Assembly: GCA_050303415.1 (NCBI GenBank)
Contig: JBNLBS010000019.1
Location: forward strand, 16,545-80,544
DNA: 64,000 nucleotides
Source of the DNA: Methylococcaceae bacterium
GTDB lineage: Bacteria; Pseudomonadota; Gammaproteobacteria; Methylococcales; Methylomonadaceae
Direction of reading: 5' to 3'
Made by a program: the position numbers and the translations under genes
Part shown: piece by piece, positions 1 through 64,000 of the stretch
Layout of the letters: each line of letters opens with the position of its first letter
How positions within the stretch are numbered: position 1 is the first letter of the stretch
The notes under the pieces: model-generated
Database searches by the model: none
What the model saw: the letters and a program-made list of their open reading frames with translations, nothing else
Told to the model about the DNA's origin: nothing

Positions 1-1
1 T

Positions 2-982
2 TTAAAGATCGTCAGGCGTCAGTTTATTTTGTATTTGTACAGCATAATTACCATCGGAAATACCAATTTTACCTTCAAAAACCGGTACACCAGCCGCCTT
101 TAATATTACCGTTTCAGGTAATTCCACAGGAATCACATCACCCTGCTTGAATTCCATAATCTGTTTCAATGGAAGTGTTTTTTCCAGCAATAAGCTATTC
201 ACTTCCACTTCTGTACGTAACAACTCAAAGCGCAAAGAATCCTGCCAACGACTATCTACTTCTCCACGATCACTGGATACCGCATCAAGCAAATCCCTGA
301 TTGGCTCAATCATTGAATACGGCATGGTGATATTAATGTCACCGCCACCACCTTCCAATTCAACATGAATTGTCGAGATAACCACAATTTCAGATGGGCT
401 GACTATATTGGCAAACTGCGGATTCACTTCGGAGTTCATATATTCCAAATCCACATCCATAACAGGCTTCCAGGCTTCTTTAATATCCTTAAAAATCATT
501 TCCATCATCATCCTGATGACGCGCATCTCAGTTGGAGTAAACTCCCGCCCTTCAACCTTATTATAAAATTGTCCGGTACCACCAAAAAAATTATCCACCG
601 CCGTAAAAACCAGTCGTGGCTCCATCACAATTAGAGCTCTCCCACGTAAAGGCGAAAATTTAATTACATTCAGATTGGTCGGAACAAACAAGCCCTGAAC
701 ATATTCAGAAAATTTTTGCACCTGAATACCGGAAATAGAGATTTCCGCCGAACGCCGCAAAAAGTTGAACAAGGTAATACGAAAATATCTGGCAAAGCGC
801 TCATTAATCATCTCCAGAGTCGGCATTCGACCACGAACGATACGCTCCTGACTGTTAAAGTCATAGCTTTTCGCTCCGGCATCAGTTTCCTGACCATCAC
901 CTTCAGTATCTATATCGCCATCATCAACACCATGCAATAAGGCATCGATTTCATCTTGTGAGAGTAAATCAGCTGTAGCCAT
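2..982 (-). CDS. fliM: Flagellar motor switch protein FliM (complete; stop at 2-4)
   Basis: Translation MATADLLSQDEIDALLHG...FliM N-terminal CheY-P binding motif and overall length ~326 aa; adjacent to fliL. Confidence 0.9.
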   Translation of the reverse strand: MATADLLSQDEIDALLHGVDDGDIDTEGDGQETDAGAKSYDFNSQERIVRGRMPTLEMINERFARYFRITLFNFLRRSAEISISGIQVQKFSEYVQGLFVPTNLNVIKFSPLRGRALIVMEPRLVFTAVDNFFGGTGQFYNKVEGREFTPTEMRVIRMMMEMIFKDIKEAWKPVMDVDLEYMNSEVNPQFANIVSPSEIVVISTIHVELEGGGGDINITMPYSMIEPIRDLLDAVSSDRGEVDSRWQDSLRFELLRTEVEVNSLLLEKTLPLKQIMEFKQGDVIPVELPETVILKAAGVPVFEGKIGISDGNYAVQIQNKLTPDDL

Positions 983-983
983 G

Positions 984-1481
984 TTATTGCATTACAAACG
1001 CTGTAAAAAAAACTTCTTTAATTTGAGTCTTTTCTTCCATTTTTTCCATTACCTTTATAATTTCCTGCTTGATCGCATTACGCAATTGTTCCTTGCCTTC
1101 TCGTGTAGCAAAGCCATTAACATCCTGGGAACCAATCAACATTAATAAATTATTTCGAATCATCGGTTCATGTTTGGTCAAAATATCCGGGGTTCCATCA
1201 TCCTCAACAAGTAATGACAAAGACACCTGTACAAGCTTGGCAATCGACCCCGAAGGAAAGTCTACAATTAAAGGGTCCGCCATATAAAAGTAAGTTTCAT
1301 TTTTAACGGCAACCTGCTCTTCATCAACAGAGTCTTTGGGCGTATCAGTCATTAAAAAAAAGTAAACCGCTATTCCACCCGCACTTAATAACAAGACGGT
1401 TGCTACTATTATGATCAGCTTTTTAAAGGAACGCTTTCCACCCTCTTCACCCAATTCAAATTCCTGCTCACTCTCTGCCAT
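984..1481 (-). CDS. fliL: Flagellar basal-body-associated protein FliL; real start probably the ATG at 1479-1481 (MAESEQ...) preceded by GGAGAAGGG RBS, not the TTG at 1499
   Basis: Single TM helix after charged N-terminus, FliL-like C-terminal domain, position upstream of fliM. Confidence 0.8.
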   Translation of the reverse strand: MAESEQEFELGEEGGKRSFKKLIIIVATVLLLSAGGIAVYFFLMTDTPKDSVDEEQVAVKNETYFYMADPLIVDFPSGSIAKLVQVSLSLLVEDDGTPDILTKHEPMIRNNLLMLIGSQDVNGFATREGKEQLRNAIKQEIIKVMEKMEEKTQIKEVFFTAFVMQ

Positions 1482-1771
1482 ATTAAGACCCTTCTCCAAT
1501 TTTTAAATGCAAGCAAAACCTAAGCCAAATTATATTATTTTATAAAAAACAATACATTACCAATGCGCTAGAAAATACCCTATCAATAAATGCTTTGTCA
1601 AAAAACAGATATTTGACGCTCGGCCACACTATCCACACCTATTTTAACCGACTATAGTACACAATTAATGGACAGTATATACATAAAGCATGATTTACTA
1701 CAGTCACAAAAAAAGGGTAAAACCATAAAAGTATTACCCTTATTTTAAATGTTTGATTCAACACATTACAT

Positions 1772-1972
1772 TTAAAATGCGCTCCCCGGTTTAACGCCCA
1801 TTTTTTTCAAAATTATCGCCAAGGGACAAAAGCCTGTTATTGCGGACTGTAATAAATTCAAACCGACAAAACCGGTAAACCATAGCCAATACAATGAATG
1901 TAAATGTGCCAGTAATACACTGGTTAAAATAAACATGCCCGCAACAGCCAATACCATTCGATCTATCGTCAT
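1772..1972 (-). CDS. Small inner-membrane protein, DUF2892/YgaP-like
   Basis: 66 aa, two TM segments, GFCP motif typical of DUF2892. Confidence 0.5.
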
Positions 1973-2151
1973 AAAATCTCCTAGCTCTGATAAAACAAGT
2001 ACTAATTCTCGCTTCGTTAATGTAGCTTTAACAACCCAACATTAACTGCTATAATCATTCACTATTTTCACATCGTTCCATTTTATACTCACAAAAGCAC
2101 ACCTAATAATTTGATTTAAATAACAAATCCTCTTTTTAACGCATCAAGGAC

Positions 2152-2928
2152 TTGCTTATGTTAAAAGAAACTCAACTTTTTTCCATTCTGATTGCGGATG
2201 ACAATGAAATCAATCGTTTATTACTCAGTCATCAACTGGAACAGTACACGCAAAATATTACCATGGCCAAAAATGGAAATGAAGCTTTGGAATATTTTCA
2301 AAAAAACAAATTTGATCTTATCTTACTTGACCTGCAAATGCCCGGCTATAGCGGCTTTGAATTGATTAAACAATGCCGCGTTAAAGATTGTATTAACACC
2401 AATACACCAACCGTCGCTATAACCGCTCACGCCAGAGACAGCCAACGTAAAGATATCATCGCCCTGGGCTTTGATGAATGTCTGATAAAACCCGTATTAG
2501 CTGAACAGCTGGCTGAAATTATCAATCTATGGTTGCCGGAGAAACCCGAGGATAAAAATATATCGTCATCACCAGACTACATACAAATCATGTTAGACAA
2601 AACTAACTATAATTACGCACTTACTCACACGATATTCGACAAACTATTTAGCGAACTGCCCGAACAACTGGCTTCCATTAAAAACCTAATGGAAATAGAA
2701 CAATTTAAAAATGCAATGGATTTAGCTCACAAACTTTTAGGCACCGTCAGTTTTTGTGGTTTTAATGATATAAAAGAACCCTGTGCACAATTGGAAAGCG
2801 CTCTGTTAAACCAACAAAACTCTGAAGGATGGTACTATTTCAACCTGGTTCAAGAACGGACCGAGGAATTATGCGCTCAACAAGACGATATTATGAATAA
2901 ACTTAATAATGCACTGAGCCCACAATAA
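2152..2928 (+). CDS. Response-regulator receiver domain fused to C-terminal Hpt (histidine phosphotransfer) domain
   Basis: N-terminal ILIADDNEINRLLL...LDLQMPGYSGFEL receiver signature with conserved Asp; C-terminal helical Hpt-like region. Confidence 0.7.
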   Translation: MLMLKETQLFSILIADDNEINRLLLSHQLEQYTQNITMAKNGNEALEYFQKNKFDLILLDLQMPGYSGFELIKQCRVKDCINTNTPTVAITAHARDSQRKDIIALGFDECLIKPVLAEQLAEIINLWLPEKPEDKNISSSPDYIQIMLDKTNYNYALTHTIFDKLFSELPEQLASIKNLMEIEQFKNAMDLAHKLLGTVSFCGFNDIKEPCAQLESALLNQQNSEGWYYFNLVQERTEELCAQQDDIMNKLNNALSPQ

Positions 2929-2945
2929 GCCCATTTATTTTAAGC

Positions 2946-2980
2946 TATAAAAAAAGCCCTTTCGGGCTTTTTTTATAGCT
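2946..2980. terminator. Bidirectional rho-independent terminator between the convergent receiver/Hpt gene and fimV
   Basis: AAAAAGCCCTTTCGGGCTTTTT perfect hairpin flanked by A-run and T-run. Confidence 0.7.
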
Positions 2981-2994
2981 AAATGCTTAACACT

Positions 2995-5919
2995 TTAACC
3001 TAAACTGTCGATTATCGATTGAGCCACTTCTTTTTGTTTTTCATTCCCTTTCTCTAAAACTTCCCGGGCCATTGACTCAGCTGCTTCCTTATCATCCATT
3101 CCCAAATAGGCTCTTGCTAAATCAATCTTGGTTTCAAATTCATCCATGTCGGTTAGGTCAGTAACATTTTGCTCTGAACTCTGCTCTTGATTTTCAGTAT
3201 CAGGAAAATCAAGATCAAAATCGAAGTCGGATTCATCAATTGTCTTTTCCTCTTCAGCGTCAGATTCTTGTTCCAAGCCTTCCGGTAATTCAAGCGAATC
3301 TAATGAAATGCCTGACTCTTCTGTCTTCTCAAGAGTTCCTTCCTCCTCAAGAGGCAACTCAAAATCAAAATCTATTGATTCAATTTCTTCAGTATTTTCC
3401 GATGCAGCCTGTACTGAACTATCTGATGTATCAGCGACGTTTTCATTCGGCAAATCCAGTGAATCTAAATCAAAGTCCAGTGTCCGGTCTTCAGCTATTT
3501 CAGGCTTTTCCTTAGCCTCAACCTGCATATCGGAGTCCAAATCAAAGCTATCCAAATCAAAGTCTAACGTATGATTATCAATTTCCTGCACAGTCTCAGT
3601 CTCGGCCTTTATCTCAGTGACAGAGTCAGCCATAAAACTTTCTTCCGGTTCAGCTTCTGATGATTGCACCTCATCCTTCGGCTCATCAACAGCGGGTTCT
3701 TTTTCCAAATCCTCCGCCATAATATCTTCAACCGAATCATCTAAAGATAAATCAAAATCCAAAGCATCCAAGTCATCCGTATCCTCAAACTCTGACTGCT
3801 TTTCCTGTTCAAGATCATCATTTACCTGCTCAGCAGGGGATGCCTTTGCTTCTGTGTCGGAAGCTGCATTTTCAGCTGTCGTTCCAGCTTCGGACAAGCT
3901 TAACTCCGAATCAGGACTGAGTTCTTTTCTCATCTCCAACAACTTATCCCAAAAAGCACTGTCTTCCTGCTTTCCTTCGGCGGCCAGCTGATTACTATAC
4001 TCGTCAAACGCCTGCAAATTTTCATTGGCATAAAAAATTTCAAGCAATTTTAATTTGCATTCATCGCGCTCCGGCTGATCTATTATTGCCTGACGCATTA
4101 ATTCTTCAGCTTGTTGATACCGACCATAAGCTAAATAAACATCTGCTTCAGAGACGGGGTCCACTTCCGTTTGTTCGGTTTCAAAAGCATCAAAATCTGT
4201 TGCTGAAGAAAAATCGCTGATAAACGAACTTTCGCCAGTATTGCCGATATCATAACTGGCATTATCTTCCATAATAGGAACAGCCAGCGCTTCATCCGTA
4301 TTAGGCAGATTAATTTCAGACGTTGCAGCAAACATGCTTTCGCTATTGGTTTGCTCCTCAACTTTGCGCTTACGCCACCACAACACACCTAATCCGCCAA
4401 AAATTAGTGCCGCCCCCCCTGCAATAATCCATGTAAACAGTCCTATTCCCGAATCATCCGTTATAACTTCGGGTTTTGGTTTTACTCTTGTACGTACTTT
4501 TTCTTTTTTCGGTTCTTCGGATTTGATTACAGCGGGCTTGCTTGCCTCAGGAGTCGCTTCCGGTTTTTTTACTGTGGGTTTGGCTGCAGTAGCCGGTGCA
4601 GTAGTAGCTGTCGCTGTTGTTGATGCAACTTTTCCCTGGTCACCCTGTGTCTGCTGTGCTACTTGTTTTGAAGTTTCCTCTGCAACCTGATCCGGTTGAA
4701 TACTTGTCTGTGATTTTGCAACTGAATCGATTGACGCCTTCTCTTCTTCACTTACTGTTGCTTCCTTCGGCTGTGTTCTATTTTGTAATGCAGCTATCTG
4801 GGCATCTTTTAATGCCAACATTTTCTGCATCATCATCAGTTGCTGTTCCAGGCGCTCTAACTTAATTCTCAAACTAGCCGTTTCTTCAGTCTCAGCAGTT
4901 TTTGTTTCAACAGTCACTGCCGTTTCATCAACCTTAGCACCTTCATCACCCGGCACATCATCCGTCTCACCGGCGGCCAGAACAACATCTTCTGCAATAT
5001 CCTCTTCTGTTGGTGCAACTAACGTTAATTTACTGTCAATTTCCGGTTGTTTCTCCTCAGCAACTGGTTCAGACTTTTTCTCAGAAACCGGTTGTATCCG
5101 GCCCTGCCACACTTTATTTTGTCTGTTATACTCCGCCAACGCCTGCGTACGTGAAATTTTAATAATTTCATTCTTTTCAGGAACGTCTATAGAGGCATTT
5201 GCCATCAGGGCATTAATATTCTTCTTATAGAAAGCTTTCGGATTTGCCTCATATAAAGCAATAACCATCTGTTCCGTGGCAACATCATCATTATTATTGA
5301 CCCTTTCAGCCACTTTCCAAAGCGTATCGCCTTTATCAGCAGTTGTCGTCTTTACCTGTCCCTCTGTTGTCACGGCAGTCTGCTGCACTTCCTTAGCAGG
5401 AGCCTCCGGTGACTCCACCTGAAAGTCCTTAGTCACAGCCGCCGCTTTAGGTTCAGTTTTTTCAACAGCAGGTTTGGACGTTACGGTTACTGGCACCACA
5501 GTTTGCTGATAAGTAGCCGGTGGATCCACCAAAACTGTAAATTCACGATAAAGCCTGCCTTTAGGCCAGGTTACCTCCAGCATAAAATCAAGAAAGGGCT
5601 CTTTTAAAGCTTCTGATGATGTTAGCTTGATACTAATTGAACCATCTGCTCGAGCTATTTTTTCAAATTTAATTTTTGATAAAAAATAGTTCCAGGTAAT
5701 ACCGGCTTCGTCAAACTTATCAGGAGAAGCCAGTTTTACCTTAATATCATCAATATGCTCACCAACGGAAACTTCCAAACCGATCTCTGCATCGAGATTT
5801 TGATTAAGAGCCGAATGCAATTTTATATCGCCAATTCCCAATGGATACCCGCTCGCCGGAGCCAATAACGATACTAGCGCTATAGTCTTAGTTAAATTGC
5901 GCACTACATTCTCCTTCAC
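2995..5919 (-). CDS. fimV: FimV/HubP-like polar landmark protein (N-terminal periplasmic FimV domain with LysM, TM helix, very acidic repeat-rich cytoplasmic region, C-terminal TPR/FimV-C motif)
   Basis: N-terminus MKENVVRNLTKTIALVSLL...FTVLVDPP matches the FimV N-domain. LysM-like GDTLWKVAERV is present. D/E-rich low-complexity repeats follow a single TM (FGGLGVLWWRKRK). Conserved asd-leuB neighbours, as in Pseudomonas and Vibrio. Confidence 0.8.
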   Translation of the reverse strand: MKENVVRNLTKTIALVSLLAPASGYPLGIGDIKLHSALNQNLDAEIGLEVSVGEHIDDIKVKLASPDKFDEAGITWNYFLSKIKFEKIARADGSISIKLTSSEALKEPFLDFMLEVTWPKGRLYREFTVLVDPPATYQQTVVPVTVTSKPAVEKTEPKAAAVTKDFQVESPEAPAKEVQQTAVTTEGQVKTTTADKGDTLWKVAERVNNNDDVATEQMVIALYEANPKAFYKKNINALMANASIDVPEKNEIIKISRTQALAEYNRQNKVWQGRIQPVSEKKSEPVAEEKQPEIDSKLTLVAPTEEDIAEDVVLAAGETDDVPGDEGAKVDETAVTVETKTAETEETASLRIKLERLEQQLMMMQKMLALKDAQIAALQNRTQPKEATVSEEEKASIDSVAKSQTSIQPDQVAEETSKQVAQQTQGDQGKVASTTATATTAPATAAKPTVKKPEATPEASKPAVIKSEEPKKEKVRTRVKPKPEVITDDSGIGLFTWIIAGGAALIFGGLGVLWWRKRKVEEQTNSESMFAATSEINLPNTDEALAVPIMEDNASYDIGNTGESSFISDFSSATDFDAFETEQTEVDPVSEADVYLAYGRYQQAEELMRQAIIDQPERDECKLKLLEIFYANENLQAFDEYSNQLAAEGKQEDSAFWDKLLEMRKELSPDSELSLSEAGTTAENAASDTEAKASPAEQVNDDLEQEKQSEFEDTDDLDALDFDLSLDDSVEDIMAEDLEKEPAVDEPKDEVQSSEAEPEESFMADSVTEIKAETETVQEIDNHTLDFDLDSFDLDSDMQVEAKEKPEIAEDRTLDFDLDSLDLPNENVADTSDSSVQAASENTEEIESIDFDFELPLEEEGTLEKTEESGISLDSLELPEGLEQESDAEEEKTIDESDFDFDLDFPDTENQEQSSEQNVTDLTDMDEFETKIDLARAYLGMDDKEAAESMAREVLEKGNEKQKEVAQSIIDSLG

Positions 5920-51570: not shown

Positions 51571-52579
51571 CGCTTAACATAATGTCCCCGGCATCGGCCA
51601 GTTTTTTGGCTATTGCCAACACATCTTTTTGTGCCAATTCAACTTCACTGAGTTTGACAGGGGCAGCTGCCTCCAGATCATCACGCAACATTTCTGCCGC
51701 ACGTTTAGACATGTTGTTAAAGATTTTATCTTTCAAGGAGTCATCCACCCCTCGCAGGGCAACCAATAATTGATCGGTGGATACTTCGCGTAACAACGTT
51801 TGCATACCTCGGTCATCAATATTGGCCAAGTCATCAAAGACAAACATTTTATCCTGAATTTGTTGCCCCAGTTCGGCACTGCTGTCCAGAATATCTTCCA
51901 TGATTAATTCACCGCTGGAAGCCTCCATAAAGTTCAAAATACTGGCCGCAGCATCAATACCACCTATTGAAGATGACTTCATGCTGTCACTACCGGTCAG
52001 CTGTTTCTCCATAATTTCATCCAGTTCACGTAAAGCAGCAGGCTGTACACCTTCCAGCGTGGCAACTCGCATTAAAATATCGGCACGCATATTTTCAGGT
52101 AAAAACTGTAATACTTCCGCAGACTGATCACTATCGAGCAAAGATAAAACTATGGCTATAATCTGAGGATGTTCCAAACGAATTAAATCAGCAATGGAAC
52201 GGGTATCCAGCCATTTTAATTGTTCAATTCCTTTACTGTCGGCCCCCATTAAGATTCGGTCAATAATACCGCCGGCTTTTTCAGCACCCAGCGCCTCGGT
52301 CAGCATTTTACGAATAAAATCATCTGATTTTAAACCCAGTCCTGTTTGAGTTTTGATCAGCGTGATAAATTCACTCAGTACATCATCAACGGTTGCCGCT
52401 GAGATATTCGAGATCCCCACCATGGTCGAACCCAACAGCTGTACATCTTTAGGCCCCAAATGCCTTAAAACATCCGCCGCCCGACTTTCGCCAACCGCCA
52501 ATAGAATTAATGCGGCTTTCTCAACTTGAGAAATATCACTTTCTTTTTTTCTAATATCGCTTAAATCAGCCATTGTCAT
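51548..52579 (-). CDS. fliG: Flagellar motor switch protein FliG
   Basis: 343 aa, armadillo repeats, conserved charged torque helix region. Confidence 0.9.
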   Translation of the reverse strand: MTMADLSDIRKKESDISQVEKAALILLAVGESRAADVLRHLGPKDVQLLGSTMVGISNISAATVDDVLSEFITLIKTQTGLGLKSDDFIRKMLTEALGAEKAGGIIDRILMGADSKGIEQLKWLDTRSIADLIRLEHPQIIAIVLSLLDSDQSAEVLQFLPENMRADILMRVATLEGVQPAALRELDEIMEKQLTGSDSMKSSSIGGIDAAASILNFMEASSGELIMEDILDSSAELGQQIQDKMFVFDDLANIDDRGMQTLLREVSTDQLLVALRGVDDSLKDKIFNNMSKRAAEMLRDDLEAAAPVKLSEVELAQKDVLAIAKKLADAGDIMLSGGSDELI

Positions 52580-54374
52580 TCAGCCATTGTTTTATAACCT
52601 GAGCAACCAACGCGGCATCTTCTTTAATTAATTCCTGCACATATTCCAGACGTGCGTCATAACTGATTGGCGCTTCCAATAACAATAAATCTTCTGTTGC
52701 CGCACTATATCTTCCTTCCCCTTCCTGGCCGGCCGGTACAGCAATGGGTACCCCTTTCTCATCGACAGGTTTCCCCTTGTCATCGACACGTACCGCCATC
52801 GGGTTGCCGTTTTTGTCAAACATGACTATGCCGCCAATTTCTTTAGCCTGTTGCTGAACAAGTAATAGCTGTTGAGCCTTTTCCTCTTCTTCAGATCGAC
52901 CAATCAAACCACGCATAGTTGGTTTTAAAACACCAAACACTAAAAATACAATAACCAAAGCGGCCGCGAGTTGTTTCATTAAATCAATAAACCAGCCTTG
53001 CTCCCAGAGCGGAATGTCCGGCAATGCTTCCATTTTTTCCGGCATTTTAAAAGCCACATTGGTTACAGTTACCTGGTCCCCCCGGGTACTGTCAAAGCCT
53101 ACCGCCTGTTTGACCAGGTCGGCGAAACGATTGATATCTTCCTGCGCATAGACCTGACTGATTACAGTACCGTCTTCAGCCGGAACATGCCGATTATCAA
53201 TAACCACGGCAACCGACAAGCGACGCAAGACCCCGCTGGCCAGCCGAGTATGAGTAATTGTTTTATCCAATTCATAATTTCGTGTTGCACTTTTGCTGGC
53301 AGAACCGGGCGAGGCAACGGTACCGCCTCCGGCTTCATCACCACCAGATACCTTCTCCGGTGCAACACCTGCAGGTGGCGGTTGATTGGATAATGCGCCG
53401 GGCACCCCCTGGACAGAAGACATATTACTGCTGTCTTCCTGCACCTGTTCACTTCGTAGAGCAGGTAAATCAGGATTAAACATTTCCTGGGTTCTTTCTG
53501 TAACGGCAAAATCCACATCGGCACTAACCTGGGCTCGCATGCCGTTACTGCCCACTAGCGGTATCAATATATTTTCAATGCGGGCGGTTAAATGTTCCTC
53601 TACATTTTTTTTGTATTCAAATTGCTTGGTCGATAAACCTAATTCAGTCGAAGATTCTTTTGAATTTAGTAACCGTCCTTTCTGATCGACAACAGTCACC
53701 TGACTGGATTCCATCATGGGAACACTGGAAGAAACCAAATGAATAATCGATTCAATCTGGCCCTTTTCCAATATCCTTCCCGGATAAAGATTAACCACAA
53801 CCGAGGCGCTGGGTTTTTTACGCTTACGTAAAAAAACGGATTGTTCCGGTAAAGCCAATAATACTCTTGCGGTCTTTACATTCTGAATCGCCATGATAGT
53901 CCGGGCGATTTCACCCTCCAAAGCCCTTTGATAACGGGTTCTTTCTGCACTTTTACTGGAACCAAACCCCTGTTCCTTATCCAGTAACTCATAACCTGTA
54001 CCGGTGGTTCTTGGCAAACCTTGCGCCGCCAGTTGCAGCTTGATTTTACGCACATCATCAGTCGGCACCATGATCGCGCCTGAACCGGTATCAACTTTAT
54101 ATTCAATGTTCTGCTGTTGGAGAATTTCCAGAATTTCGGCAGAGTCAGCCTCGGAAACATTGCTATACAATAAATCGTACGAATCTTCTTGTGACCATAG
54201 AACAACAGCCACAGCGATAGCAACACTAAAAGCCAAACCCAGCATCAAACCGATTTGTCTGACCATATTCATACCGGACAGACCTTTTATTGCCGGATGT
54301 ATAAAAGGTGGCTCGGAGGCAGCTTGTTTAGAACCGACTTCTACCAGATTATTGACGTTTTGCTGTTCACTCAT
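52566..54374 (-). CDS. fliF: Flagellar MS-ring protein FliF
   Basis: 602 aa, two TM helices flanking large periplasmic domain, overlaps fliG start. Confidence 0.9.
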   Translation of the reverse strand: MSEQQNVNNLVEVGSKQAASEPPFIHPAIKGLSGMNMVRQIGLMLGLAFSVAIAVAVVLWSQEDSYDLLYSNVSEADSAEILEILQQQNIEYKVDTGSGAIMVPTDDVRKIKLQLAAQGLPRTTGTGYELLDKEQGFGSSKSAERTRYQRALEGEIARTIMAIQNVKTARVLLALPEQSVFLRKRKKPSASVVVNLYPGRILEKGQIESIIHLVSSSVPMMESSQVTVVDQKGRLLNSKESSTELGLSTKQFEYKKNVEEHLTARIENILIPLVGSNGMRAQVSADVDFAVTERTQEMFNPDLPALRSEQVQEDSSNMSSVQGVPGALSNQPPPAGVAPEKVSGGDEAGGGTVASPGSASKSATRNYELDKTITHTRLASGVLRRLSVAVVIDNRHVPAEDGTVISQVYAQEDINRFADLVKQAVGFDSTRGDQVTVTNVAFKMPEKMEALPDIPLWEQGWFIDLMKQLAAALVIVFLVFGVLKPTMRGLIGRSEEEEKAQQLLLVQQQAKEIGGIVMFDKNGNPMAVRVDDKGKPVDEKGVPIAVPAGQEGEGRYSAATEDLLLLEAPISYDARLEYVQELIKEDAALVAQVIKQWLNDNG

Positions 54375-54398
54375 GCTATAAAATCACTAAATAGTCCA

Positions 54399-54716
54399 TT
54401 ACATCGGCATGTTCATAATGTCTTGATAAGCGTCGACTAATTTATTTCTGACTTGAACCATGGCCTGAAAAGAAACATTGGCTTTTTGTAAAGACACCAT
54501 TACTTCTGCGACACTGGCATCTGATTCGCCGGTTTCAAATGCATTGACCATCTTTCCCGCTGTTTGTTGGGTTTCATTAACAGCATCTATCGACTGTTTT
54601 AATAACGCGCCAAAATCCGCCCCGCTACCTGACTCGGCCGGCTGCGGTTTACTACCGGCATCAACAGACATTGCCCGCATTTGTGCCAAAACTTGATTTA
54701 CATTTATATCACTCAT
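54399..54716 (-). CDS. fliE: Flagellar hook-basal body protein FliE
   Basis: 105 aa, conserved C-terminal FliE helix (VSLQKANVSFQAMVQVRNKLVDAYQDIMNM). Confidence 0.85.
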   Translation of the reverse strand: MSDINVNQVLAQMRAMSVDAGSKPQPAESGSGADFGALLKQSIDAVNETQQTAGKMVNAFETGESDASVAEVMVSLQKANVSFQAMVQVRNKLVDAYQDIMNMPM

Positions 54717-54778
54717 GAACTGTCTCCTGACGGTTAAAGCATACTAACAGAACGATAAGCATTTTTCACGCCAACTTT

Positions 54779-56137
54779 TCAGCATGGAATAACAACTCCG
54801 GCATCTTTCATTCTGGCAATTTTATAGCGCAAAGTCCTTGGGCTGATACCTAATTTTTCTGCTGTCGATTTACGGCTGCCTTTTTCCTCATTCAAAGTTT
54901 GTAAAATAATTTTTTCCTCTGCTGAACGAATACCGTCACCTAAACTGGAAACTGAATCCTGCTCTTGTTTTTCAAAAACTTGGCTATCATCTGAGATTTT
55001 ATCCGTCAAAACAAAAGGCATATCATCCAAAATCAGGTCGTCGACTGTTATTTCGGATCCTGAAGACAAAATCAGCGCTCTTTGAACAACATTTTCCAAC
55101 TCGCGCACATTTCCCGGCCAGCTATAAGCTCGCATTTTTTCGACCGCATCCGCTGAAAAAACAGGGCGCTTTTGACCATTAGAACAATGCCTCTGCATCA
55201 ATTCCATTGCCAGTGGCAAAATATCATCAACCCGCTCTCGTAGAGCCGGTATACGCATAGGAAAAACATTTAAGCGATAATACAAATCTTCCCTAAACAA
55301 GCCATTATCAACTTGCTGTTTTAATTGCTGATTCGTTGCCGCCAAAATTCTGACATTTAATTTTATTTTTTTCTGGCTACCAATGCGCTCCACTTCTTTT
55401 TCCTGAAGCACACGTAACAGTTTAGCTTGTAATGCTAAATCCATTTCGGCAATCTCATCCAAAAACAAAGTACCCCCCTGAGCTTGTTCAAACTTGCCGG
55501 CCATCGATTGCACGGCACCGGTAAAGGCGCCTTTTTCATAACCAAATAACATGGCTTCCAGCATATTTTCAGGAATAGCTGCACAATTTACCGCGACAAA
55601 AGGTCCTTGATATTTGGAGTTGTGATGAATAAATTGGGCAAAAACTTCTTTACCAACACCGCTTTCACCCTGTAAAAACACCGCCACATCAGTTTTAGCC
55701 ACCTTTGCCGCCAGGGTATACAGTTTTTTCATACTATTATCATGAACCACCCTGTCATTAGCCGCACTTGGTTTAGCGGTCACATAATCATTCACCTTTG
55801 AAACCAGCGCACTGGCCTCAAAAGGCTTAATCAAATAATCGCTGGCGCCTGACTGCATCGCCTTTACCGCTTTGGACACTGTGCCATATGCTGTCATCAA
55901 CACCACCGGCGTTTCGCTGTATTGATTTTTAATGTTATACAATAACTGAAAGCCATCCATCACCGGCATTTGTACATCACTAATGACTATTTTAAATTTG
56001 TCTTTTGCCAGACAGGACATTGCTTCTGTTCCATTATTAGCCGAAATAACCCGATAACCTTCAATTTCCAAGGTATCGCACAATGCTTCGCACAAGGCTA
56101 TATCATCCTCAACAACTAACACATCATACTGATTCAT
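54779..56137 (-). CDS. fleR: Sigma-54-dependent two-component response regulator FleR/FlrC
   Basis: Receiver (LVVEDD..D53 region), AAA+ GESGVGKE, GAFTGA motif, C-terminal Fis HTH. Confidence 0.8.
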   Translation of the reverse strand: MNQYDVLVVEDDIALCEALCDTLEIEGYRVISANNGTEAMSCLAKDKFKIVISDVQMPVMDGFQLLYNIKNQYSETPVVLMTAYGTVSKAVKAMQSGASDYLIKPFEASALVSKVNDYVTAKPSAANDRVVHDNSMKKLYTLAAKVAKTDVAVFLQGESGVGKEVFAQFIHHNSKYQGPFVAVNCAAIPENMLEAMLFGYEKGAFTGAVQSMAGKFEQAQGGTLFLDEIAEMDLALQAKLLRVLQEKEVERIGSQKKIKLNVRILAATNQQLKQQVDNGLFREDLYYRLNVFPMRIPALRERVDDILPLAMELMQRHCSNGQKRPVFSADAVEKMRAYSWPGNVRELENVVQRALILSSGSEITVDDLILDDMPFVLTDKISDDSQVFEKQEQDSVSSLGDGIRSAEEKIILQTLNEEKGSRKSTAEKLGISPRTLRYKIARMKDAGVVIPC

Positions 56138-57371
56138 GAGTCACCTCTTGTTCGATCAGGCTTTTACCGGAAAACCCTCCCGGCAAGAAAGAGAATTTAT
56201 TGTTCTTATTCGGCAGGGATAAGGTAAAAGCCGTCCCCTTTCCGGGTTCCGAATCACAACGAATGATGCCGTTGTGGGCTCGAATAACATTCTCAACTAC
56301 CGCCAGGCCAAGACCGGTACCCTGTGATTTGGTAGTATAAAACGGTTCAAAAATTCGTTCACATTGGGCATTATTAATACCCGGACCATTATCAGAAATA
56401 ACGATGTCAATATTTTGTCCTGTCTGCTTTACCTTCATTTCTATTACTCCGGCTGAATCGGCCAAAGCCTCAACAGCATTGGTCAAAATATTCATTAAAG
56501 CACCCCGCAAGGCATTTTCATTACCTTGAAATTCGTCTTCAGCCAAACAACTTTGTAACCTGAAATTAATTGCTGATCCGACAAGGTCTTCCGCCATGTT
56601 TTCTTTTATCCGTTCAAATAAACCGGTCAAGGAAAAAGCCGTCATGGACAAACGGCCTTCCTTGGCAAACACCAGCATATCACTGACTTGTCTCTCCAAA
56701 TGCTGTAAACGTTCCAGAATTTTTTTCGAATAACGTTGACGTTTACCCTCATTTAATGCGGGATTACTCATTTGAGATGCATAGAGAATAGCGGTGGATA
56801 ACGGAGTTCTTACCTGGTGCGCCATACTGGCTACCATTTCACCCATTGAGGATAAATGCTTCTGCTGATTGACCATATCCTGTAAAGCATGCATTTCAGT
56901 GACATCAGATAATAAAATAACCTGTTCAGAATGCCCGGCCAATTGACTGCTGGTCAAACTGACCCGCTGACCATTTTTTAACTGCCTTTCATGCGGACTG
57001 TTAGATACAGACATCAAGCTGCGTTCAACTACTTGCTCCCAGGGTAAACCGATTAAAGGCTCTGCCAAATACTCCACGGCAATGGCATTACAATCCAACA
57101 CCTGTGAATGCGCATTTAAAATAACCACCGCCGCAGGTAAAGCGGCCATAATTTCCTGCAAACGATTGGCTATTTTCTCTTTCTCAACCAGTGTATTAAT
57201 ACGTTCTGTTCGTGCAGCAGAGAGCTCTTGGTGTAATTTGGCGACCTGTGCTTCCAGGCCTTGATAGGACTGGGTCAGGTTTTGAGATAACTGATTAAAG
57301 ATGCGAAACGCATCGGTCAGTTGTTCGGTCTTATGATTGTGCTGATGATCTAATGTACTCATTTTGCTCAT
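56124..57371 (-). CDS. fleS: Sensor histidine kinase FleS/FlrB (PAS + HisKA + HATPase)
   Basis: H-box MAHQVRTPL, G-boxes GTGLGL, soluble PAS-containing N-terminus; overlaps fleR start. Confidence 0.75.
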   Translation of the reverse strand: MSKMSTLDHQHNHKTEQLTDAFRIFNQLSQNLTQSYQGLEAQVAKLHQELSAARTERINTLVEKEKIANRLQEIMAALPAAVVILNAHSQVLDCNAIAVEYLAEPLIGLPWEQVVERSLMSVSNSPHERQLKNGQRVSLTSSQLAGHSEQVILLSDVTEMHALQDMVNQQKHLSSMGEMVASMAHQVRTPLSTAILYASQMSNPALNEGKRQRYSKKILERLQHLERQVSDMLVFAKEGRLSMTAFSLTGLFERIKENMAEDLVGSAINFRLQSCLAEDEFQGNENALRGALMNILTNAVEALADSAGVIEMKVKQTGQNIDIVISDNGPGINNAQCERIFEPFYTTKSQGTGLGLAVVENVIRAHNGIIRCDSEPGKGTAFTLSLPNKNNKFSFLPGGFSGKSLIEQEVTHESV

Positions 57372-57625
57372 TTCACTTTAAACAGATGTTTTTGTGAAAA
57401 AAGCAATTTTCAGGCCAAGACAATAAAATCAGACTAGGCAAACCTTCTGAATCCTGTATAAGAATGTCTTAAAACCGGAATATTCTTACCTCCATACCGG
57501 CCATTCCCACTCACTCCATATCCCAACGATCAATGTACCAGGAATCACGCAGTGATTTTGCCAGCACCCTTATTTATAAAGAAATTTAACGATAATTCCA
57601 ACCGTCAAAATAATGACATCTCCAA

Positions 57626-59062
57626 TTAACGATTTAAATCCAATTTTCGCATTTTCTCAACCAAGGTAGTACGTCCCATATTTAATCGCTTGGCGGCATG
57701 TGCGACTACACCATTACACTCAGCCAAGGCCTGTTTTATCAGCACACTTTCCATATCATTCAGATATTCTTTTAAATCGATACCCTGTTCCGGTATACCC
57801 GGTATAACGGAAGTAACCGTAACAGGAGCCTCCATTTCTGCCTCTGTCTGATTAATTTCAGGCTCTGGTTCATCCCGGTCAATTTTAAAATCCTCAGGAA
57901 CCACATAATTCTGAAATTTTTCCGGTAAATCTATGCAGTCAACCACGCCTTTGGGATTAATAATTGCCAAGCGTTCCACCAGGTTTGCCAGTTCCCTGAC
58001 ATTACCCGGCCAATTGTGCTGCATTAATAGCGCCAACGCATTATCGGTCAGCCTCACTGAACCACGATTTGCTGCTTCCATTCTGGCAATCAAATCCTTT
58101 ACCAGCAATGGAATATCTTCGGTACGCTCTCTTAAGGCAGGCATTTCAATAGGAAATACATTTAACCGGTAGAACAAATCCTCTCTAAAGCGGTTTGCAT
58201 TGATCTCATCTTCAAGATGCCTATGCGTGGCGGCAATAATGCGTACATCACAGTCAATTGTTTTATTACTGCCCACCCGTTCAAAAGTTCTTTCCTGCAG
58301 CACCCGGAGTAACTTCACCTGCATTGCCATAGGCATATCACCAATTTCATCCAGAAACAGCGTTCCACCCTCTGCCATCTCAAACCGCCCCTGCCGAGAA
58401 GTTAAGGCTCCGGTAAATGCACCTTTTTCATGCCCGAATAATTCACTTTCCAGTAATTCACCTGGAATCGCACCGCAATTAACCGGCACAAAAGGTTTGC
58501 TTCTCCGAGTTGATGAATCATGTAAAGATCTGGCCACAACCTCTTTACCGGTACCGGACTCACCCAGTATCAATACTGTGGCGTCCGACTCGGCAACCTG
58601 CTCGATCAATTGACATACTTGAGAAATCCCCTGGCTCTTACCCTTCAATTTCTGCCGGGCAATTGATGGTTTTGAGAATGCTTGAACAACCGTAGAAGTT
58701 TTTTCAGGTACTGGGATTTTTGCCATAAATGACTGCAAAACAGGATATGTTAAGGGCCATTCCAAAATACTTGATACGGTGTTATTTATCGCACTGGGTA
58801 CTTTTAGCGCTGTTCCCTTATCTATCAGTAAAACCAAAGGGATGTCACCAACCTGAGCCGATATATTTTTAATAATGGCGGCTTGTTTTTCCATCCCACT
58901 GCCGATAAATACAACGGACACGTCAGAAATATCGTTTAATCTGTCTTCATAATTTTCAGAATCACTTTGTTCTACAGAATATTCCATGAACTGGAAAATT
59001 GTTTCAAATTGCGATGACCTGAGTTTGCTATCATCAATTAACAAAATACCTGGCAATGCCAT
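57626..59062 (-). CDS. fleQ: Sigma-54-dependent master flagellar regulator FleQ/FlrA
   Basis: Atypical receiver-like FleQ N-domain, AAA+ sigma-54 activation domain ([14 protein letters not shown]), Fis HTH. Confidence 0.8.
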
Positions 59063-59368: not shown

Positions 59369-60628
59369 TTGAGTACCCCTTCGTTGAACGATATTCCCCT
59401 TAGTATGCTATTTGGCATACTTGCATTAATGCTAGTACTGTCTGCTTTTTTTTCCGGCTCTGAAACTGCATTAATGTCTCTAAACCGCTATCGCCTGCAA
59501 CACTTAGTCAAGAAAAAGCATGCTGGAGCTATTAGGGCAAACCGCTTATTAAAAAGACCGGATCGCTTGATTGGTCTTATTTTATTAGGTAATAATTTTG
59601 TTAATGTCCTGGCTTCGGCATTAACCACTATCATAGCAATGCGTATTGCCGGAGAATCAGGTATTGCTATCGGCGCCCTGTTATTAACCCTGATCATTCT
59701 TATTTTCTCCGAAGTCACACCTAAAACGCTGGCGGCCATAAAACCAGAAGTGCTTGCTTTTCCTGCGGCCCGGATATATGGGCCGTTACTCAAACTTTTA
59801 TACCCTTTTGTCTGGCTGGTTAACTTATTTACCAATTTATTACTTAGAATTATCGGTATCAACGCCAGCAAACACCAGGAAGACACACTAAGTAAAGAGG
59901 AGTTAAAAACTGTGGTTTCAGAGGCGGGTAATTTAATGCCTACTCGTTATCAAAACATGCTGTTGGGTATTTTAGATCTAGAATCTGCGACGGTGGAAGA
60001 CATAATGACTCCACGCAATGAAATCAAAGGCATTAATCTTGACGACTCGATTGAAGATATTATCGATCAAATTCAGCGCAGCAATTTAACACGTTTACCC
60101 GTTTATAGAAAAAGCATTGATCGCGTTATCGGATTTCTGCACTTAAGGCGCGTGCTGATTCTTATCAATAAGGATAAATTAGATAAACAACATATTGTCA
60201 GTAGCTTAATTAAGCCTTTTTTCATTCCTGAAAATACGCCTTTACACCAACAGATGCAAAATTTTAAAGCTGAAAAGCAACGGATCGGTTTAGTCGTTGA
60301 TGAATATGGCGACGTACAGGGACTGGTCAGCATGGAAGATCTGTTACAGGAAATAGTCGGTGGTTTAACTGTAGAAAAAAACCATATAAGAAAACAGACA
60401 GATGGCAGTTTTCTGGTCGATGGCAGTGTAACTGTTAGAGAGCTTAACCGGGAAACCAATTGGTCCTTACCAACAGAAGGTCCAAAAACCATTAACGGCC
60501 TGATTATTGATGTAATGGAAACCATCCCCGAACCGGGAACCAGCGTCAGACTCTACGGTTATCCTTTGGAAATCATCAAGCGTGATAAAAACACCATTAA
60601 ACTGGTCAGGTTTCACCCGCAGACCTAA
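59369..60628 (+). CDS. CNNM/CorC-HlyC family transporter (DUF21 membrane domain + CBS pair + CorC_HlyC)
   Basis: FFSGSETALMSLNR DUF21 signature, CBS pair, C-terminal transporter-associated domain. Confidence 0.75.
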   Translation: MSTPSLNDIPLSMLFGILALMLVLSAFFSGSETALMSLNRYRLQHLVKKKHAGAIRANRLLKRPDRLIGLILLGNNFVNVLASALTTIIAMRIAGESGIAIGALLLTLIILIFSEVTPKTLAAIKPEVLAFPAARIYGPLLKLLYPFVWLVNLFTNLLLRIIGINASKHQEDTLSKEELKTVVSEAGNLMPTRYQNMLLGILDLESATVEDIMTPRNEIKGINLDDSIEDIIDQIQRSNLTRLPVYRKSIDRVIGFLHLRRVLILINKDKLDKQHIVSSLIKPFFIPENTPLHQQMQNFKAEKQRIGLVVDEYGDVQGLVSMEDLLQEIVGGLTVEKNHIRKQTDGSFLVDGSVTVRELNRETNWSLPTEGPKTINGLIIDVMETIPEPGTSVRLYGYPLEIIKRDKNTIKLVRFHPQT

Positions 60629-60745
60629 GTACAATAATGCCGATAAAGAAATCGGTAATTGTTCGCGAAATTATGTTTTTTTTTAAGCACAAAAAACAAA
60701 CCGGACTATACTTAGTTTCTGTGGACGGGGTGATAAAAACAAATA

Positions 60746-61369
60746 ATGGCTAAATTTACTGTTTTTTTTAAAGATAAGGCAATCCAATCAGATTTGATTG
60801 ATAGTGGTGTTGCGCATATTGGTCGAGATGAAACCAATGATATAACTGTCGATAGTTTGGCAGTAGCGCCTGCGCACGCGGCTGTCATCATTAACGATCA
60901 GGAATGTATTATTAAACAGCTTAACGATGATTATCCATTGATCATCAATGGCGAAGAAACTAAATCCTGTACATTACAGGATAATGACAAAATAACCATT
61001 GGAAAACACTACATAATATTCAATACCGCCGAGTCATTTGTTGATGAGGAAATCCGACAGCCCGAACAGGAAGAAGATAGTTTCCATCTTGAAACGGAAC
61101 ACTCTTTGCCGGAAGGTAATTTGCAAATTATGAATGGCAAACATATCGGTAGAATTTTACCGCTAAAAAAAGTCATGACTAAACTTGGTCATAAAGGCAG
61201 CGGTGTTATTGTTATAGCAAAAAGAAAAGAAGGTTATTTTGTATCTGCGTTGGAGAACAATGCATCCTTGGCTATTAACAAAACGCCGTTAGGCGATACC
61301 ACTGTTAAATTGAACAATAATGATATTATTGTGGTTGACAACGCTACAATGCAGTTTTTTCAGGATTAA
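60746..61369 (+). CDS. Protein with two FHA-like domains
   Basis: HIGRDETNDITVDS...SRAHA-like APAHAAVI...INGEE...DKITIGKH pattern, repeated in C-terminal half. Confidence 0.4.
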   Translation: MAKFTVFFKDKAIQSDLIDSGVAHIGRDETNDITVDSLAVAPAHAAVIINDQECIIKQLNDDYPLIINGEETKSCTLQDNDKITIGKHYIIFNTAESFVDEEIRQPEQEEDSFHLETEHSLPEGNLQIMNGKHIGRILPLKKVMTKLGHKGSGVIVIAKRKEGYFVSALENNASLAINKTPLGDTTVKLNNNDIIVVDNATMQFFQD

Positions 61370-61375
61370 TTCAGC

Positions 61376-61744
61376 ATGACCATTGAAAAAAAAGATCATC
61401 AGCGACATTTTCATCGCATTCTTTATCATGCCAATGCAAAGTTAAGTTCACAACAACAAATCTGGGACTGCGAAATTCTGGACTTGTCTTTAAAAGGCTG
61501 TCTGCTGAAATTTGAAAATACCTGGCATGAAGACCCGGATCAAAACTATACCTTAACTCTTGAGCTATCTGTGGATGCAAAAATACAAATGACACTGTCT
61601 GTATCACATGCCATAGACAATAAAGTCGGATTCAAATGTGAACATATAGATATCGACAGCATCTCACAGTTACGCAGACTGGTCGAATTAAACCTGGGCG
61701 ATAGCGAAATACTTGAAAGAGATTTACTGGCTTTAGCCGAATAA
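61376..61744 (+). CDS. PilZ-domain c-di-GMP receptor
   Basis: RxxxR (QRHFHR) and DxSxxG (DLSLKG) motifs. Confidence 0.7.
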   Translation: MTIEKKDHQRHFHRILYHANAKLSSQQQIWDCEILDLSLKGCLLKFENTWHEDPDQNYTLTLELSVDAKIQMTLSVSHAIDNKVGFKCEHIDIDSISQLRRLVELNLGDSEILERDLLALAE

Positions 61745-62003
61745 CCAGGCAGGAAAAAGACTCTTTAACTGTTGCCGGGCTTTCAAACCGTAGGCACCAC
61801 TGCCACGTGATAGATTTTGGAGCATCCCAGCCAGCCAAAATCGACGTCGCTGACGTAGCAACCATTATTTCCCCGATTCGTCTTGCACCCGGACTCAGCA
61901 AATCTCTATTGAATAAACAAGAAGGTCCCTAGGGCTTCAGATCTTTAAGTTGTTGTAAAATAGCCTTTTCAGTAACAAAGCCTATATCACAGGTATTTTC
62001 TAT

Positions 62004-62100
62004 TTACTCTATTTCCTGACTGCGCAAGTAATCTTCATAATTACCCCTAAAATCGACAATACCGGAGGGTGTCAGCTCCAGCATACGGGTGGCCAGCAAG
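62004..62100 (-). pseudogene. 3'-terminal remnant of an ABC-F (YbiT/Uup-like) ATPase gene (encodes ...[31 protein letters not shown]) with no upstream body
   Basis: In-frame translation of minus strand; resemblance to ABC-F C-termini is from memory; rest of gene absent. Confidence 0.35.
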
Positions 62101-62231
62101 AATCAAGGGGGCCTGATTTTAAATTGTGGTGATTTAAATTAATCAGATTCTTGCGATGCCTTATTACCTAGTAAAAGTGTTGCACTTGGAACTTGAATTC
62201 ACCTAAACTAGGGGAGCTTCATTTTGACCCC

Positions 62232-62741
62232 CTATTTTTCGGGTTCCTTCTTACGTGCTGACCTAGTAGAAATGAAAGCAGATAATAATTCATCATCTGA
62301 AGCTAAACTAATTCTGCTTTTCCTTTCAAGATACTTGCCTTTAGGTCTGGCTTCAATAGAAATAAACCCAGACATTTCTTTGGCTTTTATACTTATTTCT
62401 TTAGATGGATATTTATGTATAGAATCATCATCGGAAAAAGATGGCAAGAGCCCCCAAAATTTATAGATTTGGAAATTATCAGATAGCTTTTCAATAGTTA
62501 TTTGACTAATTAATCCGCAACCATTTGGCAAACGTGCATTGAGCAAAGGCCAATATAATTCTGATATACCTTCAAACACAATCCAAGCACGACGGAGTGG
62601 AGCATCAGCAGCTTCAGAAACTGGAACATCAAGATCTAAAACAAGACACCAAGGTATTAAGTCCCAGCGCAAGGCTAACAATCTAGCGTCAATAGTTAAT
62701 TTTTTTGTTTTCTCTTGATCAAGTTCAGTAATGTTTTTCAA
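62232..62741 (-). CDS. Hypothetical 169-aa protein; candidate immunity protein of the adjacent orphan Rhs toxin tip
   Basis: No recognised motif; position downstream of Rhs-CT (separated by inserted transposase). Confidence 0.35.
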   Translation of the reverse strand: MKNITELDQEKTKKLTIDARLLALRWDLIPWCLVLDLDVPVSEAADAPLRRAWIVFEGISELYWPLLNARLPNGCGLISQITIEKLSDNFQIYKFWGLLPSFSDDDSIHKYPSKEISIKAKEMSGFISIEARPKGKYLERKSRISLASDDELLSAFISTRSARKKEPEK

Positions 62742-62786
62742 TGTATCCTCTACATTATCTTTTCATCGGTGGAGCAGGTTTTGCTA

Positions 62787-63607
62787 GTCCTGATTGAAGG
62801 GGTCAGCCAACTTGATTTTTATAGTTTTCACTTTTTCTATCTCCTCCATGTGATGTAAGCTTTGTTGTTCTTGAAATTAACTGACTGATTTTATGGTGAA
62901 ACTCACTACTACCATAAACTTCGCCTCGTATAGTTGCTTCCGTAATTTGTTGGTCTTGTGATTTGCTACTTGGAGTATTAAATATTTTCTGATAATTCGC
63001 TGTCCGGCTCGCTACACTTTCGCCCAAACTCCTATATAACTCATGTTCCGTAATTAAACTATTTTCTTCGCCTAATGCATTATGTCGATAACTCGACCAT
63101 GGATAATCAGCCATTTTCTTAACCATATTCGCTTTGACAGGATTCATTTCAATATAGCGATAGAGACTAAAAAGGTAATTTTCACTGTCAATTAAACATG
63201 ACTTAAACCGACCTTCCCAGATAGTGCCTGTTCTATTTCGGGTGGCATTAAAATAACGAACATATCGATTAGCCATTGTTTGCATAAACTGACTCAGCTG
63301 TGTTTTTTCAGCAGGCGTGATTAGCAAATGTAAATGATTGGTCATGATGACATAAGCATGTAGAGAACAGCTTGATTTGGCTAGGGCATAGGCTATATCT
63401 TCTTTGATGCGAATCATATCCTCTTCAGATTCAAAGATATCCTGTCTATTATTTCCACGGTGCATAATATGCAACGGTTGATTGGGAACAACAATTCGGG
63501 GTAATCTGGCCATTTATGAACTTTAGTAAACCTTTGTCTCCAAATCAAGTTGGCTGACCCCTTGATTTCTTTGTCTCCAAATCAAGTTGGCTGACCCCTT
63601 GATTTTT
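62787..63607 (-). mobile_element. RAYT/IS200-like unit: Y1 (HUH) transposase gene flanked by inverted REP-like hairpin repeats, one copy on the left and a tandem doublet on the right
   Basis: Left flank GATTGAAGGGGTCAGCCAACTTGATTT (62791-62820). Right flank carries 2 copies of TTTGTCTCCAAATCAAGTTGGCTGACCCCTTGATTT (63534-63607). Each forms an AAATCAAG/CTTGATTT stem. Confidence 0.7.
62803..63513 (-). CDS. IS200/IS605-family Y1 tyrosine transposase (REP-associated tyrosine transposase-like), extended C-terminus
   Basis: HUH motif HLHLLI, catalytic Tyr region (NYLFSLYRYIEMNPVKA), 236 aa; stop codon lies inside the left hairpin repeat. Confidence 0.8.
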   Translation of the reverse strand: MARLPRIVVPNQPLHIMHRGNNRQDIFESEEDMIRIKEDIAYALAKSSCSLHAYVIMTNHLHLLITPAEKTQLSQFMQTMANRYVRYFNATRNRTGTIWEGRFKSCLIDSENYLFSLYRYIEMNPVKANMVKKMADYPWSSYRHNALGEENSLITEHELYRSLGESVASRTANYQKIFNTPSSKSQDQQITEATIRGEVYGSSEFHHKISQLISRTTKLTSHGGDRKSENYKNQVG

Positions 63608-63932
63608 GTTGTTCAATTATGTAACTTCCCGTTGGTAATGGTCCATGATCCTGAACATCAGTATGATCAGGGTTATTTTGGCAATCCTTACATGAGGAAC
63701 TTTGGTTATTTCCTGCTGTGTATTCATTGCTAGAAAAATAGGGGTTCTTAGGATCGTTCGGTGTACAACTCATAAAATGCAGGCTTATTGAATAATAGCA
63801 ATAATATAAGCCTGATGGGTCCACTATTTTCATCGGATTCCCCCCAACATAAGCATAAGTATTAAGACCACCGACTAGGTCGATAGGATCACTGGTAATA
63901 TACCTCCCTTGTTCAGGATCATATGTAGTGGT
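63582..63932 (-). CDS. Orphan Rhs/YD-repeat C-terminal toxin fragment (end of RHS core [41 protein letters not shown] followed by ~70-aa Cys-rich variable tip); no N-terminal body, in-frame stop at 63933-63935
   Basis: Manual minus-strand translation of 63834-63932 extends the listed ORF upstream through the canonical Rhs core terminus and PxxxxDPxGL demarcation; upstream frames lack YD repeats. Confidence 0.6.
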
Positions 63933-64000
63933 TTAATAGCACCGGACACTTTAATGAGAGACAATACACGTCAAACATTAAGGTATCAAAATGGGACAGA

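Follow-up and report, generated by a model that had tools for sequence, protein, structure and literature searches.

A truncated Tlde1-type Rhs tip beside a REP/RAYT unit is probably the remnant of an eroded polymorphic-toxin array in a Methylococcaceae bacterium

The final segment (positions 62232-64000) of a 64,000-nt stretch of DNA from a Methylococcaceae bacterium, here called the window, is very probably the eroded remnant of an Rhs polymorphic-toxin/immunity array rather than a functional orphan cassette. The window lies inside contig JBNLEW010000056.1 (assembly GCA_050305215.1, 80,655 nt), in which the Rhs frame survives only from its YDP codon via the DPSGL boundary through about 67 residues of a Tlde1-type L,D-transpeptidase-like domain. 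On the 5' side the frame is cut by an insertion sequence (IS) of the IS3 family, about 1.24 kb in size; on the 3' side it stops at a unit of repetitive extragenic palindromes (REPs) and a gene for a REP-associated tyrosine transposase (RAYT), arranged REP-REP-RAYT-REP, and for that reason the locus lacks both the catalytic His/Cys half of the toxin and any Tldi-type gene for periplasmic immunity. All of the components, namely the Rhs core end, the Tlde1 tip, the IS3-family element, the REP/RAYT unit, and an orphan immunity gene, are of a known kind. The main value of the analysis is a correction: an apparent miniature, novel Rhs toxin is in all likelihood what is left, as a pseudogene, of a toxin of known type. 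The 83-aa open reading frame (ORF) called there is unsuited as a toxin candidate. In addition, two mobile elements, one of the IS3 family and one REP/RAYT unit, are documented as eroding an Rhs array.

The minus-strand translation of 63500-63998 yields exactly the peptide reported in the initial annotation, with stops in frame just upstream. The annotation was also right that an RHS repeat-associated core ends here and passes into a toxin tip, with no Rhs body attached in the available sequence. The last 39 codons of the core (YDPEQGRY...DPSGL; 63807-63923, minus strand) match the NCBIfam model TIGR03696 (Rhs_assc_core) with 51.4 bits against a cut-off of 32.5 (E 1.2e-13) over profile positions 38-76 of 76 only, a match that, judged by this score, is not due to chance. 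The same core-end motif was returned by a profile search of the PDB from solved Rhs and Tc proteins, where it sits at the shell ends, and the DPSGL boundary motif at 63807-63821, which is of the DPxGL type that separates core from tip, aligns with DP(T/L)GL in relatives and in Rhs proteins of solved structure.

When six different Rhs proteins were compared with the window by tblastn, every alignment began exactly at 63923, and full-length Rhs proteins used as tblastn queries found neither a YD/RHS repeat shell upstream of 63923 nor other Rhs DNA elsewhere in the 64-kb window. The first genuine Rhs codon is TAT at 63923-63921; since the "TT(T)" residues that precede YDP are encoded by the terminal bases of the IS (...ACC ACT ACA, then TAT GAT CCT), Rhs sequence proper starts at this codon. 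The left end of the IS (63924-64000, plus strand) comprises a leader and the ATG start of OrfA at 63991 in addition to the terminal inverted repeat TGTAGTGGTTTAATAGCACCGGACAC..., and it continues up to the point where the contig stops, 64 nt outside the window. IS and YDP codon meet at 63923/63924, where the junction reads ...CCACTACA followed by TATGATCCT; relatives of the IS terminate in ...CCACTACA, and in the window TAT GAT CCT comes directly after.

The 141-nt piece of the IS that was assembled shares 80-82% identity with the left ends of numerous copies found in genomes of gammaproteobacteria. Complete relatives measure 1235 bp, with OrfA, a frameshifted OrfB, an imperfect right repeat, and 3-bp target duplications, and their right ends read TGTTCT/TGTACT, the terminus being ...TTGACCAG(A/T)ACA. 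From position 68 of the 141-nt piece, an ORF encodes MGQKRTYKQYSKEFKGEAVNLVLE, 24 OrfA residues that are close to OrfA proteins of the HTH_Tnp_1 family (PF01527); a protein search with a padded OrfA query, the last 25 residues of which were invented, returned related rather than identical OrfA fragments, and these carry PF01527. A scan of genome contigs with the inverted-repeat pattern gave 44 loci, the pattern being too strict for right ends. The window copy resembles the IS3 family in its TG-terminal inverted repeat and in an OrfA with an HTH_Tnp_1-type N-terminus, and differs from described members in that the assembly covers only 141 nt of it, which include neither its right end nor the target duplication.

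The contig itself terminates 64 nt past window position 64000, i.e., 141 nt into the IS, and this overhang equals the k = 141 in the contig names (k141_) of metagenome-assembled genomes from the same accession series, so that we infer an ordinary break of the assembly at a repeat present in many copies. In gammaproteobacterial and Nitrosomonas drafts, relatives of the element are very often located at contig ends (L008, L016, L017, L026, L037, L042, and others), which marks it as a frequent cause of assembly breaks. The upstream stops and the lack of YD repeats were seen as the initial annotation had described them, but they lose the meaning of an orphan hallmark that it had attached to them. 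Their cause is the IS3-family insertion next to the YDP codon, together with an assembly that ends 141 nt inside it, and they are uninformative on an Rhs body about 1.24 kb further on. Contig ends inside repeats can, as seen here, mimic "orphan" gene structures.

The tip (63606-63806, minus strand) is a Tlde1-type (PF10908) toxin domain reduced to its ~67 N-terminal residues, as found by Pfam, phmmer, and tblastn, with the catalytic C-terminal half absent. A phmmer search with the 67-aa tip recovered 57 relatives (cluster representatives, E <= 1e-3), of which the closest reached E 2.4e-19 with 66% identity, and nearly all of them run 63-73 residues beyond the point at which the window tip ends. 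These additional residues hold a conserved ...RRNLTP...GR..FQ.HGCPNP..CS.GCI... block with an H...CSxGC motif, which by its sequence corresponds to the catalytic motif HXX14-17-(S/T)HGCh of Tlde1a (PMC9638812). Of 14 sequences aligned, one of which is the window fragment, 13 matched Tlde1_dom at E <= 0.01, and full-length Rhs relatives that combine RHS_repeat with a C-terminal Tlde1_dom are represented by P0080 (1413 aa, 44.5 bits) and P0123 (1616 aa). For the window fragment, the profile search that had been proposed as a check of the tip did match a known family, PF10908, but below the threshold: Tlde1_dom scored 23.1-24.4 bits against a gathering score of 30.1, a shortfall due to coverage of only a quarter of the model (fragment residues 81-112 on profile positions 10-41 of 120).

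The extent of the loss is apparent from a 208-aa Tlde1-type protein encoded on the metagenome contig L004, residues 19-142 of which align by tblastn to window positions 63923-63615 (E 5e-28), whereas residues 143-208 (with LHFCPNMETCSDGCI) have no counterpart anywhere in 60001-64000. The catalytic motif region of relatives, e.g., LHFCPNMETCSDGCI in the L004 protein and HGCPNPATCSDGCI in P0073, is without a counterpart in the window, and neither the missing Tlde1 half nor a Tldi-like gene was found when 60001-64000 was searched for them. A search of metagenome contigs with the tip gave core-end matches only, and a PDB sequence search with the tip profile gave Rhs core ends only. What had been described as an unusually small, uncharacterised tip of about 70 aa is therefore the first ~60% of a Tlde1-type toxin without its catalytic half, a result on which Pfam, phmmer, the alignment, and tblastn agree.

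The last seven residues and stop of the 83-aa ORF (KSRGQPT plus stop) are encoded by a REP repeat and not by toxin sequence; the ORF is probably a by-product devoid of toxin activity. Public annotation and a protein collection list it as P0001 (MKIVDPSGL...; window 63582-63833, minus strand), and, as the entry begins at a Met within the Rhs core end and terminates in the REP, it is an annotation artefact. A whole tip of the Tlde1 type would be freed from its Rhs shell at the DPxGL boundary and would attack the periplasmic peptidoglycan of its target (PMC9638812, together with established knowledge of Rhs effectors), and neither release nor attack would be possible for the window fragment. Compared with Rhs and type VI secretion system (T6SS) effectors that end in Tlde1 (DUF2778, PF10908), the fragment shares the DPxGL core end followed by a Cys-rich N-terminal subdomain and a GP(I/L)PxGxY segment, and is 58-66% identical to relatives, full-length Rhs-Tlde1 proteins included; it differs from them in the absence of the catalytic half, of an Rhs shell (in the available sequence), and of an adjacent periplasmic immunity gene.

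Tip homology stops at two tandem 37-nt REP units (AAATCAAGGGGTCAGCCAACTTGATTTGGAGACAAAG; 63532-63605, minus strand, the units at 63569-63605 and 63532-63568), the first of which supplies the final codons of the 83-aa ORF. Each unit forms a hairpin with an 8-bp stem, with a predicted DNA fold of -6.3 kcal/mol per unit (z = -3.2). Next comes an apparently intact RAYT gene (236 aa; 62803-63513, minus strand), in the translation of which the HUH motif NHLHLL and the Tyr of LYRYIEMNP can be read, and which scores 86.1 bits against a cut-off of 80 with the NCBIfam equivalog NF047646 (REP_Tyr_transpos) and E 2.3e-14 with Pfam Y1_Tnp. A third REP copy (62797-62818, plus strand) is inverted relative to the other two and truncated, the distal stem arm being missing and a hairpin impossible. 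The whole REP-REP-RAYT-REP unit spans 62797-63605, and when up to 3 mismatches were allowed, these three copies, all flanking the RAYT gene, were the only ones in the 64-kb window. In having a RAYT above the equivalog cut-off and flanking REP hairpins in inverted orientation, the unit is like other REP/RAYT units; it departs from them in its position inside former coding sequence and in the truncation of one flanking REP, and many dispersed REP copies, as expected of such units, were not seen within the 64-kb window. The position is mildly unusual, as is the break-point within a REP hairpin.

Since the window stems from a metagenome-assembled genome and both junctions of the tip fall at repeats, the juxtaposition of tip, IS, and REPs could in principle be a chimeric metagenome join, which we consider very unlikely. 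The contig ends inside the IS rather than joining through it; the 37-nt repeat is far below k = 141, so that mis-joins are not expected at that k; and an independent Logan assembly (contig L002) reproduces the order from the second REP through the RAYT gene and the third REP to the toxin tail and immunity gene described next.

On the far side of the REP/RAYT unit lie traces of a second cassette, comprising the last 13-14 codons and stop of another, unrelated Rhs toxin, here called toxin X ((L)QSGLAKPAPPMKR plus stop; 62755-62796, minus strand), which were recognized by tblastn and by comparison with a second Logan contig (L068), and an intact 169-aa gene, ImmX (62232-62741, minus strand), which adjacency in relatives predicts to be the immunity gene cognate to toxin X. 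In the tblastn search, the toxin tail of L056 (IKSGTAKPAPPMKR plus stop) matched the window at E 1.8e-4, the window reading LQSGLAKPAPPMKR plus stop right after the truncated REP. For the 169-aa ORF, 19 homologues were found, and neither Pfam nor NCBIfam gave a match. Its homologues stand 10 nt after full-length Rhs proteins in L051-L053 and abut 296-aa Rhs C-terminal ORFs in L057 and L058, and the adjacency of toxin-X tip and immunity gene is kept in seven loci (L051-L053, L056, L057, L058, and L068). The tips concerned are not of the Tlde1 type; they share ...GGRTDILQ..DHGAG.SHTH(D/N)P... and end in ...PP(P)(K/R).R plus stop.

The comparison with L068, a 1259-nt Logan contig from another sample, is particularly direct, as it is 99.15% identical to window 62208-62796 and holds toxin X whole: an Rhs core end, GGGLNSYGYVNQNPLYWVDPYGL, is followed by about 150 residues (...DHGAGRTHTHDP...) that end in QSGLAKPAPPMKR plus stop. 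Identity between L068 and the window breaks off precisely at 62796/62797, where the third REP has its border. It also ends on the other side (L068 1074-1259), 24 nt past the immunity stop, and is followed there by a REP-like aatcaaggggtcagg and by another, different RAYT-like ORF, of which the start (MARPLRIEFAGALYHITSRGN) is present; REP/RAYT elements thus occupy different sides of the cassette in different strains.

The toxin X/ImmX pair, which is unannotated and can be recognized by the motif DHGAGxSHTH(D/N)P, is identified here as a side product of the analysis. Throughout the toxin X family (L068 1-529, L057 2450-3340, and L052 4688-5587) a conserved ...PNGGRTDILQ..DHGAG.SHTH(D/N)P...F(I/V)NGL... 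block is always followed by an immunity protein of the 169-aa type; no Pfam match and no PDB sequence match were found for the C-terminal domain of toxin X. The predicted fold of the 169-aa protein is similar to that of PIM7, which confers immunity to the DNase toxin PT7, and a nuclease activity of toxin X might be guessed at from this modelled likeness. The idea that the tip and the toxin-X tail once formed a single gene was rejected, as Tlde1 relatives end in ...NTLTVVP and not in ...PAPPMKR, and as L068 places the tail in a different toxin with its own Rhs core end.

These relations also bear on the 169-aa ORF, which the initial annotation had proposed as the partner of the tip. The pairing does not survive: the RAYT gene lies between the two, the 169-aa type is paired with toxin X in the seven loci, and the tail of toxin X itself persists in the window. 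For a toxin that acts in the periplasm, a signal peptide on the immunity ORF is expected. The ORFs that follow Tlde1 tips in L004 do have signal peptides and show no similarity to the 169-aa protein, which is without one. ImmX is likely an orphan immunity gene in this genome, one that would act against toxin X delivered by relatives and would be the sole component of the toxin system still working. Orphan immunity genes are established elsewhere, e.g., the Serratia Rhs NADase immunity proteins (PMC10539506), to which ImmX compares well in that the gene is intact, its cognate toxin is down to 14 codons, and its homologues stand directly after Rhs toxins; it differs in belonging to a family with no Pfam or NCBIfam model and in that its protective effect is predicted.

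It is extremely unlikely, given the above, that the window carries a displaced, potentially functional orphan cassette composed of a novel Cys-rich toxin of ~70 aa with the 169-aa ORF as its immunity gene. The core end and tip are indeed present as described, and orphan cassettes with Tlde1-type tips do exist elsewhere, but the tip is without its catalytic motif, its ORF ends in REP-encoded codons, the stops upstream of it lie in IS DNA, and the 169-aa ORF is both separated from it by the RAYT gene and tied to another toxin. Orphan Rhs toxin/immunity cassettes downstream of full-length rhs genes have been described in Salmonella Typhimurium (PMC7043789) and in bee-gut bacteria (PMC5727410). 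The locus is like these in having a short core-end fragment with a tip and no delivery body attached, and in having originally held more than one tip/immunity pair. It is unlike them in that its 5' limit is an IS boundary and not a recombination scar, and in that the toxin is incomplete and its own immunity gene missing: where an orphan cassette has a complete toxin domain, the window has only residues equivalent to 19-142 of the 208-aa relative, and where a cognate immunity gene would stand immediately downstream, the REPs and the RAYT gene come next. A textbook orphan array is seen in L004 (positions 1-4391), a tandem of three short Rhs C-terminal cassettes that each start with M(R/P)(E/G)AKLPSVRPLYNWHRYYDP, two of which have Tlde1-type tips that are each followed by a signal-peptide ORF.

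The history that best accommodates an eroded array would begin with an ancestor of the form [Rhs core-Tlde1 tip][its immunity][core end-toxin X][ImmX], i.e., at least two tandem tip/immunity cassettes. A deletion or replacement with end-points at or inside the REPs would then have taken the stretch from mid-Tlde1 to near the end of toxin X, the Tlde1 immunity gene included, and an IS3-family element would have hit the core at the YDP codon, then or earlier. Three points weigh against this account. The order of events and their origin in a single deletion are inferred rather than observed; the junction between Tlde1 and the first REP is known from one assembly and a duplicate contig, L002 starting inside the second REP; and the tip scores below the Pfam gathering threshold, its family having been assigned through phmmer and tblastn homology to members that pass.

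A more active role for the REP/RAYT unit, in which RAYT- or REP-mediated recombination itself deleted or replaced toxin and immunity genes in the polymorphic-toxin array, is unlikely, if conceivable. In its favour, one break-point lies inside a REP hairpin, and the sister contig (99% identical) combines an intact cassette with another RAYT-like gene and REP-like sequence on the other side. If true, REP/RAYT elements would actively remodel Rhs cassettes and strand orphan immunity genes.

Within the preferred reading, that of an eroded array, the state of the locus at the time of the IS insertion may be pictured in two ways, which are rated about equally likely. The IS may have split a full-length rhs gene, the YD-repeat body of which would then resume about 1.24 kb further, on another contig of this assembly that ends in the right end of the IS, a course of events that is given slightly less than an even chance. 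Rhs homology reaches the IS boundary, relatives of the IS insert cleanly with 3-bp duplications, the same tip type is borne by the full-length Rhs proteins P0080 and P0123, and a multicopy repeat would be expected to break contigs in just this way; against this, most database relatives of the tip are short ORFs (many of them from short contigs), and the gene list of the contig part adjoining the remnant, in the adjacent part of the window, includes no T6SS, VgrG, or PAAR genes. Alternatively, with a plausibility of much the same order, the IS may have hit an orphan cassette that was already displaced, with a short core fragment and no adjacent Rhs body. Orphan arrays of this tip family keep only about 10-20 core residues before YDP (L004 and P0073), and no fewer than two cassettes, Tlde1 and toxin X, were formerly present here; nothing in the window, for its part, separates this second course from the first.

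A few further features adjoin the remnant. A scan for promoters and terminators gave a result no better than that of shuffled sequence. Between the immunity gene and a PilZ gene, a 32-codon open stretch that follows a stop (62007-62100, minus strand) resembles the 3' end of an ABC-F-type ATPase gene (Pfam ABC_tran_Xtn, at E 0.14 only) and may be another gene remnant. In addition to the PilZ gene, FHA and CNNM/CorC genes stand beside the Rhs remnant, and 52566-59062 (minus strand) with its neighbours forms a flagellar regulon block that includes a FleQ-like sigma-54 activator, a sensor kinase, a response regulator, FliE, FliF, and FliG.

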